A DNA stretch of 64,000 nt from Nitrospiraceae bacterium. Its GTDB lineage: Bacteria; Nitrospirota; Nitrospiria; Nitrospirales; Nitrospiraceae. The stretch lies in assembly GCA_050246315.1 (NCBI GenBank), contig JBFWWG010000005.1:192001-256000 (forward strand), read 5' to 3'. The notes beneath the pieces were generated by a model. That model was given only the letters and a program-made list of their open reading frames with translations, ran no database searches and had not been told where the DNA came from. Below are positions 459-47,426 of the stretch, one piece after another (positions within the stretch are counted from its first letter, which is position 1; every line of letters begins with the position of its first letter). A program made the position numbers and the translations under genes.

Positions 459-837
459 CCGGCGGCTATTGGGCAGAGGACAAGGAGAGAAGAGGCTTGT
501 GACGCGCCTTCTCCGGCTGCCGCAAACCATGTGGGTGGCAACCGATTCAACCGCAGGTGATGGAGGCAAGCGATGCAGACCCGTTACAGTGTTTTTCTCC
601 GCCCGACATGACCCATGTGATGAGTGGCCGATCCAACGAAGGTTCGTACGGAGAAAGACGAGAGAAATCCTGTGGGGGATGGGCTTCGGCCACCAGGAGC
701 AATCGAAGGGCGGCTGGTTCAACCGAAGGTTGGATTCAATATGAAAAGAGGCCAAGAAACTGTAGGGTTTCTCCGGCGGCGTCAATGGGGAGGGGCTGCG
801 CCCAATGTGCCGCCGGCTCAACCGAAGGTTGGTATGG
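459..837. repeat. Tandem array of four structured repeat units (509-560, 595-646, 681-733, 765-832) plus a half unit (459-479); candidate ncRNA array
   Basis: Each unit is TTCTC-like lead, GC-rich stem, variable interior, complementary stem, then a CAACCGAAGGTTG-like hairpin; hairpins recur at 548, 634, 720, 819. Confidence 0.8.
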
Positions 838-9672: not shown

Positions 9673-11151
9673 TTATTTGGGGGCGATAAACACCTCGACG
9701 ATCTGGGCGTCACTGACACGCGTCAGCTCCGCCTCAAGGCCGCGAGGATTACCGATGCGGCCATCCGGATCGTACACAAAGCAGAACAGAGTTTGATGTC
9801 CCGTGGCAGGAAATGCTATGGCATCGGCCGTCACCCGCTCGGCGACTTCACGGGACCCGATCCCGCTCTTCGTCATCCCCGCCAGAACGGCGAGATGGTG
9901 ACTTGGCAAGAGCGACATGGCGCGCGGAGTCGCTGTTGGCTCACCGGCGGACCATTCCCTTTGAGCCACCTCGTCGAACTCGTATCGTAGCAACACATAT
10001 AAGAGATCTTGTACGTCCTGCTCGTCCTGCACATCCAGGGGAGTCCGATGATTTCCCCGGAGGCGGAGCTGCCGGACAACGGCGTGGAACCTTGTACAGA
10101 CCTTTCGGACGAGATCGAGAGGATCCTCCGGCCCGCTCGCACTCCAGGCGGGTGGATCGGCGACCTGTCCGGCAGCACGTGCTGCGGTGGCCTGGGGTGC
10201 AGCGGCCTCGGTCGTGAGCTCAGCAACCCGTGCCGGGAGTGCGGAGGAGGGTGGCGGTTCGTGAAAAACCGAGTTAGCTGGGCGCTCAAATGCGAGCCCA
10301 TGGGACGGATGCCCCGCCCCGGCGGTTGGATGCGACACAGGTGGTGGAGGATCGGAAAGGGGCCCCGGGGCTGCAGCAGGCGCGTCTCCCTGATGTGCAG
10401 AATCCCGAACCTGCTCACGGGGCTCGGGTATGCTTGGGACGCCCGGACCTTGGCTGATCCCGGGCGATGCGGGAGAAGGGTCTGTCTGGAGCGCCGGGGC
10501 CTGATGCGAAGGCGGAAGCCCGCGAAGGGCCATGCCCTGGTCCGGTAACGGCGTCGGAGGCTGGGCGACAAGCGTCGGTTTTTCGGACGGTGGACTCGGA
10601 AGGACAGACCGCTCAGCGAGAGCGGTGGGGTGGTCAGCCAGAATGGTGGTCGTCGGAGGGGGGGCGACGAGAGGAGCGGGCAAGGTGGGCATGATTTCAG
10701 CGAGTGTAGCAGATGAGGACGAGGACACAGCCATGACGACCGTCGCGGCTGGCGGCGGGGCATCTGGCGCTGGTCGAACGGCGGGGGTGTGGCTGGGAGG
10801 GGGTGGCGCGATCCCCTGCAATTCCAACTTTTTTCGCTCCAATTGAGCGATCAATGAATGGAGCAACGAAATCGTCTCGGCCACTTCCGACGGAGAGCTG
10901 GTGCGGAGGTGATGCGTTTTCCACTGATGGAATTCAGGGGACCGCTCTCCGAAGATGCACTTGATGCACTCGCGAACCTGGAGCTCGGCCCGCGCTCGCA
11001 CGGCATCGCGATATGGGAACCCTTCCTGTCGCAGATCCTCAACCTGAGTGAGTTGATCTTGCAGCTTGCGGATGTTCTCATTCACCGCTTCGAGAGAGGC
11101 GGTATGCTTGGCCTTGGTGCGGGCGGGATCCTTGGCAGCGGCTCTGGGCAT
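9673..11151 (-). CDS. Protein with helical N-domain, long Pro/Ala-rich linker and C-terminal DpnII/MboI-like PD-(D/E)XK domain with apparently lost catalytic residues
   Basis: DEQDVQDLLYVLLRYEFDEV and LFCFVYDPDGRIGNPRGLEAEL resemble this restriction-endonuclease-like family as I recall it. Confidence 0.7.
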   Translation of the reverse strand: MPRAAAKDPARTKAKHTASLEAVNENIRKLQDQLTQVEDLRQEGFPYRDAVRARAELQVRECIKCIFGERSPEFHQWKTHHLRTSSPSEVAETISLLHSLIAQLERKKLELQGIAPPPPSHTPAVRPAPDAPPPAATVVMAVSSSSSATLAEIMPTLPAPLVAPPPTTTILADHPTALAERSVLPSPPSEKPTLVAQPPTPLPDQGMALRGLPPSHQAPALQTDPSPASPGISQGPGVPSIPEPREQVRDSAHQGDAPAAAPGPLSDPPPPVSHPTAGAGHPSHGLAFERPANSVFHEPPPSSALPARVAELTTEAAAPQATAARAAGQVADPPAWSASGPEDPLDLVRKVCTRFHAVVRQLRLRGNHRTPLDVQDEQDVQDLLYVLLRYEFDEVAQREWSAGEPTATPRAMSLLPSHHLAVLAGMTKSGIGSREVAERVTADAIAFPATGHQTLFCFVYDPDGRIGNPRGLEAELTRVSDAQIVEVFIAPK

Positions 11152-11276
11152 CGGACGATGGATGCGGCGTTCGTCGGTTCGGACAATTACATGGGTGAAA
11201 GTCTAGCCGAGGGCTTCCGGACCGGCAAGAAACATGGTGATTTGTGCACCGATCTGGCAGACGAGCCAGAGGGACG

Positions 11277-11621
11277 CTAGCCGTGCCAGGCAATGTCCGG
11301 ACCGGCAGATCCGCCATGGTTGCGGAGTCGCCGGATTCCGGACAAACGTTCCTTGGCGGCTCGGGAGTACTTGAGAAACTCTACCCCGAAAGTAGACCCT
11401 TTGACCCAACGCACGCGGGCCAGAGCGATCGCGATGGGGTCCTCGCCACCCTGGCATTCGATTTGGAGAGAGAGGTAGGTTCCGATGACGGGAACGACCT
11501 CACTTCGAACGGCGCAGCCTGGGCCGGACAGATCGACAAGCCTGCCTTTTCCGGCAATATCGTCTCCGCAGAATCGAACGGGATACCGCAGAGACACCCG
11601 GTGATGAGATCTGGCGCGCAT
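11277..11621 (-). CDS. Single-domain PilZ protein
   Basis: RxxxR (RSHHR), DxSxxG (DLSGPG), ARVRW..FGVEF. Confidence 0.88.
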   Translation of the reverse strand: MRARSHHRVSLRYPVRFCGDDIAGKGRLVDLSGPGCAVRSEVVPVIGTYLSLQIECQGGEDPIAIALARVRWVKGSTFGVEFLKYSRAAKERLSGIRRLRNHGGSAGPDIAWHG

Positions 11622-11868
11622 AGCGTGTCCTTCGAACTGATGCCACAGAAACCGGCTTCAGAGGATTGGGCCAAGATGATCCTCACCAAATGTAGTCGAT
11701 AATTCAGGATTCAGCCAGTAAACGGGTGGATCCGGTCGTTGTGCGGGACAAGGTATGGGGGAGTCAGGGGAGGGAGGGCACGATCAGCTCCGAGACTTTG
11801 GACGTGATGGGCGATTCTCAAGGCCCGTCGGTCCCTGTTGTAGCGGAGAGGAATGGTCGATACCATCC

Positions 11869-12168
11869 CTATCCGTTCTGAAGCTGCTCCAGTTGCTCTC
11901 TCGCGCTCCCCTCATAACGGAGGAACTCAAGGCCGAGCCGACCTTCGCGGACCCAACGGACCTTGGCCAGTGAAATGCAGACAGGCTGGGATTCCTCCTG
12001 GACCAGGATTTCGAGGGCGACATAGGCCCCCTGTTGGAGCGAGGTGCGGCTTTCGATGGCACAGCCCGGAGTGCACAGGTTGACAAGCTGCCCCCGGCCT
12101 GCCGACTTATCTCCCAAGAATCGAATGGGAAGCTGGAGCAGTGTTCGTGGGCTCGATCGGAAATTCAT
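11869..12168 (-). CDS. Single-domain PilZ protein (paralog)
   Basis: RSSPR, NLCTPG, AKVRW..LGLEF. Confidence 0.85.
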   Translation of the reverse strand: MNFRSSPRTLLQLPIRFLGDKSAGRGQLVNLCTPGCAIESRTSLQQGAYVALEILVQEESQPVCISLAKVRWVREGRLGLEFLRYEGSAREQLEQLQNG

Positions 12169-12296
12169 GATGGTTATGCGGATCAGGGTTCATGATGAAA
12201 TGGGCGATGCCGACGCTGAGACCATGCTACGACAATGGGATCGAAATCGGGAAGAGGACGAAAGTAGGGGGCTGTGAAGGATCAATCGTACCGGAA

Positions 12297-12460
12297 GGTC
12301 CTCTCCGGCGGCGGCAATGGGGAGGGCTGCACCCGATGAGCCGCCGGTTCACACGAAGGTGAATTATCTGGAAGTGAAGGAATCACTTGAGGGGTTCTCG
12401 GCGGGCGGCAATAAAGAGAGGCTCCGCCTGAATAGCCCGCCGATCAACCGAAGGTTGGTA
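12297..12460. repeat. Two structured repeat units (12297-12363, 12391-12458) of the same family as 459-837, directly 3' of tRNA-Arg
   Basis: CCGGCGGC/GCCGCCGG and CGGCGGGC/GCCCGCCG stems, each followed by a CGAAGGT-containing hairpin. Confidence 0.8.
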
Positions 12461-12537
12461 TGGTGCCCCCGACACGAATTGAACGTGCGACACGCGGTTT
12501 AGGAAACCGCTGCTCTATCCAACTGAGCTACGGGGGC
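12461..12537 (-). tRNA. tRNA-Arg(CCT)
   Basis: Reverse complement GCCCCCGTAGCTCAGTTGGATAGAGCAGCGGTTTCCTAAACCGCGTGTCGCACGTTCAATTCGTGTCGGGGGCACCA folds as a cloverleaf, encoded CCA. Confidence 0.96.
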
Positions 12538-12660
12538 GTGGGGGAAGTCTCGCACAGTCCTGTCCACTGAGGCAAGGGAACGAGAGCGCCGGGCCTGACC
12601 GGCTCCGAGGACGCGTGGCGTCGTCGGAGCACGTCCCTTGGATTTCAGGAACCCGCAGCC

Positions 12661-13083
12661 CTACTGACGGTTGGCCTGATCCCGCTTGCAGCTTTCTTCC
12701 GCGAGCATGCGCTGTCCTGCTGAGGCATCCTTGGGAATGCGCGCCATGCAGGCATCCAACGTGTCTCCTTGCGTTCCTGACGATACCCGGTCGCCGCTCT
12801 TCGTCGAGGCGGTTCCGACGACGCTTTGCCGAACGGCTTCGTCGCGGCGGCAGCTTTCTTCGGCCACCATGCGGGTACCAGGGCTGGAATCCTTCGGGAT
12901 TCTGGCCAGACAGGCATTCAGCTCCGCGTTGGAATCTGCCGCGCCTTTGGCGGCGGTCCCTGACGTTGTTGAAGAGGTCGCGGCGGAGCCGCCCGTCATA
13001 CTACCCTGTTCGGTGGCGCACGCAGCCAAACCAAACATGAAGGCGACACTTAGTACAGTTGATCGGACGGACATCCTGTTCAT
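12661..13083 (-). CDS. Small lipoprotein with a duplicated Cys-x19-Cys module
   Basis: GAGGAGG before ATG at 13083; LAAC lipobox; LNACLARIPKD..EESCRRD and LDACMARIPKD..EESCKRD. Confidence 0.8.
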   Translation of the reverse strand: MNRMSVRSTVLSVAFMFGLAACATEQGSMTGGSAATSSTTSGTAAKGAADSNAELNACLARIPKDSSPGTRMVAEESCRRDEAVRQSVVGTASTKSGDRVSSGTQGDTLDACMARIPKDASAGQRMLAEESCKRDQANRQ

Positions 13084-13149
13084 ACGGTAAACCCTCCTCA
13101 ATGGAATAAATAGTCGGCGATGGGTCGAGTCCTGTCGGCTGAGGGAAGG

Positions 13150-13178
13150 GTTATAGCGAACTGGCATGACGAAGGCAA
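13150..13178 (-). promoter_or_regulatory. Putative sigma70 promoter for the Cys-repeat lipoprotein
   Basis: Minus strand TTGCCT, 17-nt spacer, TATAAC. Confidence 0.55.
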
Positions 13179-13181
13179 GCG

Positions 13182-14558
13182 CTACGGCTTCTTTTCGGCT
13201 GGCTCAACCGGCTTGATCAGTGACAATTTTTCGGGAATTTGAGTCAAGATGTCGGCGCGAGCCTGGAAAACGCCCGGCATGGCTTGGCCGATGGCATAGA
13301 CCAGACCGCTGGATTGATTCCCGAGGACCAAGCGGCCGCTCTGACTGCCGTCCTTTCCCGTGGCCGTAAACTCGGCGGTTGGAGCGACCAGTCCGTAGGG
13401 CGCCAGGGACCCAGGCTGTTTGACCACCCGTATCTCGGCTGGCAAGTTGACAACCCGGCTCACGAACAGATCCACGGTTTCTTGATTCAATTTCTCTTCC
13501 GGTCGATCCTCCAATACCCACTGGCCGCTTTGATTGATGAGCTGGTATTGCTCGGTGCGGGTCTTCACGGCCAGCATGGCGACCATCTCAAAGTCGAGCC
13601 CCAGCAATCGTTTGTCCTGCAAGGTAAAGAGATCCTTGGTCAGGTCCTTCAGCATGGCCGGACTAATTCGATAGAGCGGTCCCGCTGCGGAGGTCTCGGC
13701 GAACGCCTCGCCGCTGCTGGTCTCGCTTTGATAGAGCTTGACCGTATGGTCCGCGCCAGCTGCATGGACGGTGATCTGCGCCAGCGGTTTCTTCAGCGTC
13801 TTGGCGATTTCCACTCGTTCCGGACCCGGATCGATGATGCCGATGGCTTTCAGAGCCTCCAGGCGAAACAGAAAGGACCGAACCTCGCTCTGGTCGGCAT
13901 TGGCTTCGATCGGAGCCCGGATCTTCCACTTTTTGGCCGGTTTATCATCCATCAGGTACAGGACGATTTCTGTCGGTGGATAGGTTAGGCGTAGGCGATC
14001 GGCTTGGGCGTGCTCGAACGGAAGAATTTCCTTGCGGCGGAAGGTCATCACCGTCTTGTTCAAGAAATCCTTGACCGCCAAATCGGTGAGGAGCACCTGT
14101 TTGTCGGACTCGCGCAACACGTAGAGCGTGGAGGAAAGGGGACCGACATCGCCGATGCCGAAGGTCTCCTGCTGATCCTGCGTTCTGACCGTCACCGTCA
14201 CCGGCGGGTGTTCGAGCCCGAAAGGACGGAGCGACTCCTGTGTCGTCTCGATCACACGCGAGACCTTCCCGAGGACTAAGGCGCGGATCATCGATTGGGC
14301 CTCGCGGGTGTCCGCCTCGGCCTGCACCGGAGCGGTCATCATCCAGTTGCGAGACTCGTCAGTTTTCAGCTCGATGGTGCCCTGAGCGGACTTGATCCCG
14401 AGCCCGGTGATGGCCTTTTCTTCGAAAGAGAGCAGTTTGGATTTCTGCGCCTCGGTCTCTTCCTCTCGTTGTTGGCTCGGCAGTTCGACGAAATAGAGGT
14501 AGGCTCCCAACCCCGCCAGGAGCAATGCCAGCGCGATGCTGCCTCGGTAGCGGGACAT
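13182..14558 (-). CDS. DUF4340-domain membrane-anchored protein
   Basis: N-terminal TM, repeated W.(M/I).AP...AD and (F/Y)GL..P motifs; last gene of a Gld-like ABC operon. Confidence 0.8.
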   Translation of the reverse strand: MSRYRGSIALALLLAGLGAYLYFVELPSQQREEETEAQKSKLLSFEEKAITGLGIKSAQGTIELKTDESRNWMMTAPVQAEADTREAQSMIRALVLGKVSRVIETTQESLRPFGLEHPPVTVTVRTQDQQETFGIGDVGPLSSTLYVLRESDKQVLLTDLAVKDFLNKTVMTFRRKEILPFEHAQADRLRLTYPPTEIVLYLMDDKPAKKWKIRAPIEANADQSEVRSFLFRLEALKAIGIIDPGPERVEIAKTLKKPLAQITVHAAGADHTVKLYQSETSSGEAFAETSAAGPLYRISPAMLKDLTKDLFTLQDKRLLGLDFEMVAMLAVKTRTEQYQLINQSGQWVLEDRPEEKLNQETVDLFVSRVVNLPAEIRVVKQPGSLAPYGLVAPTAEFTATGKDGSQSGRLVLGNQSSGLVYAIGQAMPGVFQARADILTQIPEKLSLIKPVEPAEKKP

Positions 14559-29765: not shown

Positions 29766-29880
29766 TCCAACCTATGCTCGGACCGGCCGGTTGGGTTCGC
29801 GCACGCGTAGTCGGGTCGGTGTCTGCAGGCGGGACGGAGTCTTAATTTAATCGGCACGAATATTCCAGGGGGAGCAAGCG

Positions 29881-31086
<1,206 letters not shown>

Positions 31087-46183: not shown

Positions 46184-46220
46184 CGGTCGTCGAGTGAAGG
46201 TGACGGGGGAGGATTGAGGC

Positions 46221-47426
<1,206 letters not shown>

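Follow-up and report, generated by a model that had tools for sequence, protein, structure and literature searches.

Three-hairpin repeats of Nitrospiraceae that begin at tRNA CCA ends and at complements of ribosome-binding sites

Two repeat units downstream of a tRNA-Arg gene

The locus analysed here lies in a 64-kb window of the Nitrospiraceae assembly G000 (4.39 Mb, 30 contigs), in which a tRNA-Arg(CCT) gene is followed, on the minus strand, by two structured repeat units, u1 and u2. Both belong to a large family of extragenic repeats with three conserved hairpins, found almost only in Nitrospiraceae, whose arrays begin at a YCC|A junction and are best preserved next to it. The family appears to be a selfish, site-seeking repeat of a new kind rather than a dedicated small RNA. 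With moderate confidence, we regard it as an orientation-specific, hairpin-dependent repeat that adds copies 3' of YCC(A), and that would be transcribed passively at this locus, as the trailer of the tRNA and the leader of a PilZ gene. What can be said most safely is that this tRNA-Arg trailer and PilZ leader holds two members of the family, u1 and u2, which differ in age.

The tRNA gene (12461..12537, minus strand; called by ARAGORN, and by Rfam RF00005 with 64 bits) has an encoded CCA, and this terminal CCA provides the first three model positions of u1, so that the two features overlap. The junction-proximal unit u1 occupies 12387..12463 (85.3 bits with the covariance model R1 described below), and the distal, older unit u2 occupies 12293..12367 (59.2 bits), both on the minus strand; as u1 and u2 belong to the R1 seed, their scores match by construction. 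Read along the minus strand, the tRNA end ...GGGGGCACCA is followed in u1 by UA, hairpin H1 (CCAACC-UUC-GGUUG; 12445-12457), AU, hairpin H2 (CGGCGGGC...GCCCGCCG; 12399-12442) and then AGAACCCC, with H2 enclosing a third hairpin, H3 (AGGC-GGA-GCCU; 12419-12429). Unit u2 repeats the plan with H1 (UUCAC-CUUCGU-GUGAA; 12348-12363), H2 (CCGGCGGC...GCCGCCGG; 12305-12347), the enclosed H3 (GGGU-GCA-GCCC; 12324-12334), and then AGAGGACC. The pyrimidine-rich linker between the two (12368..12386, minus strand) is the tail of u1, and similar linkers are present in every multi-unit array. Folding of the 174-nt stretch gave z = -2.55 for the minus strand and -1.74 for the plus strand. The initial annotation had described two units of one plan directly 3' of the tRNA-Arg CCA; these are real, and all the strings that it quoted are present in the sequence. 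The further copy that it had seen in the window is located at 759-837, with 73% identity over 79 nt to 12385-12463.

Family size and conserved structure

A search with nhmmer, seeded with the three window units and iterated over the whole of G000 (E<=1e-3), yielded 105, 139 and finally 145 matches. The 145 copies form 89 arrays (55 single, 20 double, 7 triple, 6 quadruple and 1 quintuple), none of which mixes strands, and several of the single arrays are trailed by decayed units when inspected by eye. Only four of the 89 arrays fall inside open reading frames called by a crude gene caller; the family is thus a high-copy extragenic imperfect palindrome. The unit has a core of ~77 nt and a pyrimidine-rich tail, with a period of ~87-100 nt. 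H1 has 5 bp and a TTC loop and comes in three main compensatory versions (AAC/GTT, ACA/TGT and AAG/CTT), H2 has 8 bp and is G+C-rich, and the inner H3 has a G-N-A loop; a pyrimidine tract ending in ATTG follows H3, and AGA(A/G) follows H2.

The covariance model R1 was built from an alignment (A1) of 42 family members. In A1, 92.5% of the cells were standard-paired and 10 of the 17 pairs had changed on both sides; none of 500 shuffles paired as well, and sliding the partners lowered pairing to 29-48%. The compensatory changes initially noticed in the window are thus present in all three helices across the family. Three other genera contributed 37 units from their tRNA-linked arrays. Aligned by fitting to the R1 model, which favours the structure, these gave 90.7% pairing and compensatory changes at 12 of the 17 pairs; pairing in their H2 reached 95.5%, and single positions had as many as six pair types. 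Judged from these alignments, the hairpins are real and maintained, with no indication of strand.

It had been argued that G-U wobbles mildly favour an RNA of the minus strand. This holds for single pairs in u1 and u2, but family-wide there was no clear excess: 97 units contained 63 G-U and 44 A-C pairs, and 22 of the 63 came from one column of one subfamily. In H2 over the same 97 units A-C exceeded G-U (27 against 17), the counts were 7 and 7 in tRNA-linked units and 8 G-U to 10 A-C in units next to Shine-Dalgarno complements, and other genera gave 26 G-U and 17 A-C overall. Since pairing is conserved while G-U and A-C usage is nearly symmetric, the data suggest that the hairpins are important in DNA form, or on both strands. 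Loops of the C-GNA-G type occur in H3 on the sense strand and in H1 on the opposite strand; the C-GNA-G loop is an unusually stable DNA mini-hairpin motif. Just 3' of H2 lies a nearly invariant GGAG, and many targets contain the complementary CTCC, which we regard as a lead only.

Where arrays start

First units begin with ATACC and are nearly always preceded by CC, which defines the junction YCC|A. Four contexts cover nearly all arrays: tRNA 3' ends, complements of ribosome-binding sites, and two other repeat elements, here called class C and class D, which hold ~40 arrays. The same YCC|A junction was found at tRNA, tmRNA, Shine-Dalgarno-complement and nested sites.

Among the 46 tRNAs of G000 predicted by ARAGORN, 11 have a same-strand unit at distance 0 and one has it at distance 6, the A of the tRNA CCA being the A of ATACC. 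Likewise, four units form an array from the 3' end of tmRNA onwards (C1:202840-203186, minus strand). By chance, ~0.003 coincidences are expected for 47 tRNA and tmRNA ends in 4.39 Mb. The enrichment of units at tRNA 3' ends, proposed as a check on the initial annotation, is strongly positive. Decayed units were seen by eye at three further tRNAs (Met-CAT, Ser-GCT and Arg-CCG), and the array at C11:162062 follows a putative tRNA-like 3' end that is cut by the contig end. The array at C2:515478 was considered as tRNA-linked and rejected; its flank is tRNA-like by eye and was called neither by ARAGORN at its default threshold nor by Rfam. Many tRNAs of G000 without a unit are directly followed by a T-rich tract, and the same is true of the tRNA-Arg(CCT) genes without a unit in G009, G010, G013 and G018.

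In the second context the unit is antisense to a neighbouring gene on the opposite strand, whose GGAGG it abuts, and the flank has the form CAT-N(4-9)-CCTCC|ATACC. A regular expression for a Shine-Dalgarno complement plus start codon matched 27 arrays, or 25 after removing two tRNA flanks. One of these two flanks is the 5' end of tRNA-Ser(TGA), which begins with GGAGG on the other strand; docking thus depends on the sequence and not on its role in translation. The second array of the window belongs to this context: the 5' end of its first unit (761..837, minus strand; R1 92.8 bits) abuts the complement of a GGAGG (836-840) that serves a plus-strand gene starting at 846, which encodes a Band_7 protein (Pfam PF01145). 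Units also dock within units. In at least four distinct combinations an older unit breaks off after ...GCCCCTC(T/C), and a new, complete unit beginning with ATACC comes directly behind it.

The leuA gene provides a case in which the order of events can be read across genera. In four genomes of the window's genus, a ~100-nt reverse-complement unit lies between two copies of GGAGG, of which the second is the working site. In G011, the sole comparator with nothing inserted, a hairpin and T-tract directly precede GGAGG-N-ATG, and in G004, G005, G007, G008, G009, G010 and G012 a GGAG-type site is kept at the usual spacing with no adjoining unit; several of the comparators carry a different repeat upstream of this site. 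Because G011 and the other comparators keep the site without an adjoining unit, sequence comparison in this one case indicates that the leuA ribosome-binding site is ancestral and that the unit arrived next to it, and the GGAGG duplication may be its footprint. We also observed by eye that leuA in more than ten Nitrospiraceae genomes is preceded by a conserved hairpin and T-tract (C7:153206-153400 in G000), a canonical intrinsic terminator or leader attenuator; in several genera another repeat, with the ends CTGCTGAAAAAG...CTTTTTGAGCAG, lies between this hairpin and T-tract and the ribosome-binding site.

Polarity and turnover of arrays

Arrays are polar. The junction-proximal unit was the best profile match in 24 of 34 multi-unit arrays, where 14 were expected, and the mean -log10 E fell with array position (12.0, 9.6, 7.4 and 7.2). 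The second array of the window illustrates this, its first unit being followed by three progressively decayed units on the minus strand (501..738, at 674-738, 587-651 and 501-565) with R1 scores of 21.0, 19.3 and 14.9 bits.

Across the four genomes of the genus, the proximal unit after tRNA-Arg(CCT) differs among G000/G002, G001 and G003, and the distal units are shared pairwise: u1 is common to G002 only, u2 also has an orthologue in G003, where it is the second unit, and the distal unit of G001 matches the proximal unit of G003. This is the pattern that repeated addition at the CCA junction would predict. In the complete genome G001, the orientation of units relative to the replichores followed no clear pattern by eye among the matches listed.

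At the same tRNA-Arg(CCT), two congeneric genomes (G002 and G001) have an inserted segment of ~6.5-7 kb that is absent from G000. A 45-nt duplication of the tRNA 3' end flanks this segment, as is typical of integrated islands, and the repeat units remain attached to the distal partial copy of the tRNA.

Units carried by other repeats

Class C is a miniature inverted-repeat transposable element (MITE)-like repeat of 330-430 nt with terminal inverted repeats of ~25 nt (TAGCCCGCATTATTCATGAA...), with copies in G000 at C4:222684-223020, C6:144687-145149 and C5:191437-191936. It was absent at all three orthologous sites inspected in the congeneric G001. Among 28 class C copies recovered with a regular expression, 15 have a unit in a fixed internal slot and 13 have a short unrelated hairpin or nothing there. 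Class D is a composite repeat of up to ~600 nt with at least eight long copies (for example C5:187275-188137 in G000), which ends in ...GGCCGCAGCGAGCGAAGAGGCGAAGAGGTAC directly before the unit; its insertions were also absent at three orthologous sites of G001. Sites that had appeared as empty or filled with a single unit between G000 and G001 proved to be insertions of these larger composites.

Both carriers are also present in G007, from a different genus, where they hold G007's own short 60-nt unit subtype, also found after its tRNA-Pro, tRNA-Glu and tRNA-Gly. Either the carrier slots are refilled by the locally active unit or copies are homogenised within a genome. Mean identity within a class was highest for units borne by the MITE-like carrier (86%), followed by those of the other carrier (78%), and lowest for tRNA-linked units (66.5%). 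Carrier units being most alike and tRNA-linked units most diverse, the recent expansion took place by hitch-hiking, and, judging from the divergence, the tRNA-linked copies look oldest.

Taxonomic range

Outside the window's family, Nitrospiraceae, the repeat is nearly absent. An R1 search of relatives gave matches in 17 of 18 other Nitrospiraceae genomes and in none of 12 genomes from the three other families of the order, and a phylum-wide sample gave matches in 14 of 17 Nitrospiraceae genomes and in 1 of 123 genomes outside, with a single match at E 2.5e-6; pooling both samples, there is one weak match in 135 genomes outside the family. The number of matches per genome was 109-136 in the window's genus (with up to 150 candidates scored), 74 in G007, and 27-29 in G004 and G016. 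In a pattern scan directed at 185,579 species genomes, 43 of 80 among the matches listed came from Nitrospira, Nitrospiraceae or Nitrospirota, as did all seven multi-match loci among them.

The association with tRNA 3' ends extends to three other genera. The first R1 position directly followed the Rfam tRNA end for 6 of 44 tRNAs in G004, 8 of 47 in G007 and 8 of 45 in G016, with the junction CCA|NACC and more than 20 tRNA species involved. At the same tRNA species in different genera the units are of each genome's own subtype and are not conserved orthologues. In G004 and G016 a unit lies inside the rRNA operon, in the 180-198-nt gap between tRNA-Ala(TGC) and 23S rRNA, with compensatory H2 changes between the two (GTTGAC/GTCAAC versus GTTTGC/GCAAAC). 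Being tolerated there, the unit is not an efficient terminator.

Neighbouring genes and RNA data

Two PilZ-domain genes lie downstream on the minus strand, as the initial annotation had it, the first (11869..12168; Pfam PF07238, E 8.8e-10) 125 nt after u2 and the second at 11277..11621 (E 1.1e-11). Likewise, no terminator was found between tRNA and units, a simple scan of 11200-13300 giving no promoter-like or terminator-like site, and co-transcription of the units with the tRNA is for this reason plausible.

RNA was assessed through Logan contigs of 4 of 24 listed runs from three studies; neither the strand nor the ends of a transcript can be read from such contigs. In one study, two libraries (X1 and X2) gave contigs at 11784-12410 and 11776-12427, which run from the PilZ gene through u2 into u1 at a depth of 10-13, like neighbouring genes, and DNA carry-over is possible. 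Contigs over tRNA-Arg covered 12461-12539 at a depth of ~270-290. No contig covered 12428-12460 or bridged the tRNA/u1 junction, a gap that is not readable as processing or as a transcript start, and no discrete small species was seen in these strandless contigs. All that follows from the contigs is that, in those assemblies, the PilZ region is contiguous with u2 and part of u1.

Elsewhere in the window, the minus strand encodes at 9673-11151 a protein of 492 aa, whose middle part is long, proline-rich and of low complexity and whose C-terminal domain resembles a DpnII/MboI restriction endonuclease (PF18742, E 3.5e-34). Two 300-nt copies, 98% identical, are found at 29868-30167 and 46208-46507, 16,340 nt apart; further identical segments share this spacing, consistent with candidate duplicated tuf genes beside a tRNA-Thr/Trp cluster.

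Comparison with known systems

We found no published description of the family in the literature on Nitrospira repeats, MITEs, hairpins, tRNA, small RNA, or repeats downstream of tRNA genes; in the passages of the RepRanger paper, the only mention of Nitrospira found was Nitrospira moscoviensis in a table (PMC12306157). Rfam 15 identified in the window only tRNA at the gathering threshold, and it gave nothing for the units at E<=10, the RtT family included, nor anything at E<=1 on a 7-kb stretch with 8 units.

The units resemble repetitive extragenic palindromic (REP) sequences and the bacterial interspersed mosaic elements (BIMEs) that contain them: both are lineage-specific, high-copy extragenic palindromes that occur singly or arrayed, form mosaics with other motifs, and are, most likely in the case of the units, transcribed passively within operons. 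Unlike REPs, the units do not have a GTAG-type 5' tetranucleotide, are larger with three hairpins, and dock strictly at YCC|A, tRNA CCA ends included, a junction that to our knowledge has not been described for REPs. A link to REP-associated tyrosine transposases (RAYTs) was also considered and rejected, the eight PF01797 (Y1) loci being flanked by unrelated GGGGTCA-type repeats and not by inverted units. Four of these genes appear intact, with frames of ~310-330 aa (C20:16382-16708, C4:264748-265071, C4:302449-302772 and C1:569545-569868), and are flanked by GGGGTCA/TGACCCC arrays unrelated to the units.

Palindrome-associated elements (PATEs), derived from IS200/IS605 elements, share with the units the absence of terminal inverted repeats, hairpins near the end, an orientation-specific position immediately 3' of a short motif, and possible re-use of the target giving tandem copies; the strand-symmetric pairing of the units is compatible with single-stranded DNA. 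In contrast to PATEs, no TnpA (PF01797, other transposase families not being searched) lies beside any unit, the right-end structure of the units is undefined, and the evidence for insertion is indirect. We know of no target as short as CCA in the IS200/IS605 family. Like MITEs, the units are short non-coding repeats variably present between related genomes, but they have no consistent target-site duplication and no terminal inverted repeats, their ends ATACC... and ...GGAGAAAC(N)CCTCC not being inverted copies of each other, and they ride inside the MITE-like class C.

Among sequences downstream of tRNAs, the tyrT repeats and rtT RNA of Escherichia coli and the RNAs from tRNA 3' external transcribed spacers are co-transcribed with the tRNA and released by tRNA processing; the tyrT repeats include a portion of the tRNA 3' end. 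They too are repeated or structured sequences located directly downstream of a tRNA gene, but they are single-locus with no genome-wide family, and the internal units described here do not contain part of a tRNA 3' end. An intrinsic terminator was rejected as an identity for the unit: H2 is followed by AGAAAC without a T-tract, the scan described above gave no terminator-like site, and a unit sits inside an rRNA operon. Canonical terminators with a hairpin and T-tract do exist elsewhere in these genomes.

The closest analogue found in literature passages was TRIT of Mycobacterium, a lineage-restricted, conserved, palindromic terminator-like hairpin with ~147 copies and a very narrow position relative to gene ends, for which, in the passages of the RNIE paper, the authors proposed an unknown binding factor (PMC3152330). 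As far as those passages describe it, TRIT and the units have in common their copy number, lineage restriction, conserved palindrome and narrow positioning relative to gene ends, and they differ in that TRIT is a single hairpin at the stop codons of protein genes, whereas the units lie at tRNA CCA ends or Shine-Dalgarno complements, form polar arrays and in one case sit inside an rRNA operon. Taken by analogy, the family appears to fit hairpin-guided single-strand elements (REP/BIME and IS200/IS605 derivatives) better than an RNA gene.

An insertion model and its alternatives

The explanation that we favour is that of a non-autonomous, orientation-specific, lineage-specific element that is mobile or recombining. 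New copies would arise by insertion 3' of YCC(A), whether at the CCA ends of tRNAs and tmRNA, at the GGAGG complement CCTCC|A, or at CCCTCY in older units or in the two MITE-like elements. Re-use of the same junction would make arrays grow at the junction and decay distally. Its hairpins would be constrained symmetrically on both strands, as may be expected if the element acts as single-stranded DNA, and the repeat would be selfish or semi-selfish. Within the tRNA-Arg trailer and PilZ leader, u1 and u2 would most likely be transcribed passively.

Several observations weigh against this explanation. We recovered no site at which a single unit with exact borders is cleanly present in one genome and absent from another, the polymorphic sites between G000 and G001 being the larger MITE-like composites, and no empty/filled pair of this kind supports the junction. 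Target-site duplication was rejected as a general feature: the 5-mer flank is repeated ~90 nt downstream in only 3 of 14 single arrays of the Shine-Dalgarno class, leuA being one case. We found no mobilising enzyme, and no unit flanks any of the eight PF01797 loci, seven of which have none within 6 kb and the eighth one at 3.1 kb. Every unit has CCTCC-A in its tail, but none of these tails was seen to have received a new unit, so a plain sequence target is insufficient. The turnover of proximal units at tRNA-Arg(CCT) could, from sequence alone, also be due to gene conversion with tRNA-Arg(TCG), since that locus has the same two-unit arrangement with 81% identity; the closest relative of u1 is the first unit after tRNA-Arg(TCG) (89.9% over 69 nt). 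In H2 of tRNA-linked units from other genera, 13 G-U against 5 A-C pairs give a weak hint of constraint on a sense-strand RNA. Finally, the persistence of units at tRNA ends in four genera and the T-rich tracts at unit-less tRNAs fit a selected function equally well.

Such a function is the basis of the first alternative, which we consider possible but unlikely: the unit would be a selected cis-element of tRNA and tmRNA genes, and copies elsewhere would represent secondary spread. Starting 3 nt after the CCA, its hairpins may halt 3' exonucleases once the mature end is reached, guide an endonuclease, or end or attenuate transcription with a protein factor or Rho; the C/U-rich, G-poor linkers of the sense strand would suit the Rho option. 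The exact abutment on CCA in four genera, at more than 20 tRNA species, tmRNA and the tRNA-Ala of the rRNA operon, argues for this alternative, as do the good preservation of the first unit, the diversity of tRNA-linked units, which makes them probably the oldest class, the T-rich tracts just mentioned, and the G-U bias of H2 in other genera. H2 is moreover 95.5% Watson-Crick in the 14 tRNA-linked units of G000, and the equal value given above for other genera, which counts Watson-Crick and G-U pairs, comes with many pair types per position. On the other hand, units follow only 11-12 of the 46 tRNAs, and not the same ones in every genus, ~85% of the arrays are away from tRNAs with ~25 of them antisense to the gene next to them, G-U pairs show no overall excess, and the same tRNA species has genome-specific subtypes instead of orthologues. 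The unit inside the rRNA operon speaks against efficient termination.

In the model of the initial annotation, tRNA-Arg and the units share a transcript, from which tRNA 3' processing frees the units as trailer-derived small RNAs of 65-75 nt; taken further, these RNAs would be stable and functional, with a possible connection to PilZ. The tRNA link of this model stood, the association being genuine, and a conserved structure with compensatory changes, the lack of a terminator-like site between tRNA and units, and the presence of u2 and part of u1 in contigs of two RNA libraries from one study are all compatible with it. A dedicated trailer small RNA is nevertheless improbable on the sequence data. 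Most arrays are away from tRNAs, in places where their sense strand is unlikely to be transcribed, the family has no strand bias in wobble pairs, a bias whose absence the initial annotation had listed among its refuting signs, adjacency to PilZ is not a family feature, and Rfam gave no match; the contigs join the units to PilZ at a depth of ~10-13, against ~270-290 for the tRNA, and hold no discrete species.

Roughly the same low probability applies to a role on the other strand, as a leader or 5' untranslated region (UTR) element that stabilises mRNA 5' ends or provides a ribosome standby site, the tRNA-linked copies then being incidental. A stable reverse-strand hairpin does lie 4 nt upstream of the Shine-Dalgarno sequence, ~25 arrays abut such sites precisely, 38 of the 89 arrays are antisense between two co-directional genes (with the crude gene caller), and each reverse-complement unit has GGAGG just 5' of H2. 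Against this role, the Shine-Dalgarno site of leuA predates the unit and is already preceded by a canonical terminator, and the same junction also occurs where translation plays no part, at the 5' end of a tRNA and within other repeats. Very improbable, finally, is a sense/antisense RNA circuit in which units shed, as trailers, by a dozen strongly transcribed tRNA and tmRNA genes pair with antisense copies at the ribosome-binding sites of ~25 mRNAs, although the first 20 nt of u1, CCA included, are the exact complement of the leaders of several genes, up to the first two G of GGAGG; if true, it would couple translation of those genes to tRNA transcription, and docking at CCA and CCUCC would be a selected architecture and not the target choice of a transposon.

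Implications

Numerous families of small folded repeats exist in bacterial genomes, and their spread is mostly unexplained; in the family described here, the rule for where arrays start is unusually sharp and easy to read. If insertion is confirmed, the family would represent a bacterial element directed at the CCA ends of tRNA genes and at the anti-Shine-Dalgarno-like CCTCC. The way in which it selects its targets could then reveal a new hairpin-guided recombination activity in Nitrospira, nitrite oxidisers that are central to the nitrogen cycle and to wastewater treatment. If the units are instead kept by selection, they would mark an unrecognised step in tRNA 3'-end formation. Units occur in the trailers of as many as one in four tRNA genes and in the leaders of dozens of genes, so predictions of small RNAs, terminators and UTRs in the Nitrospira lineage have to mask or model them.

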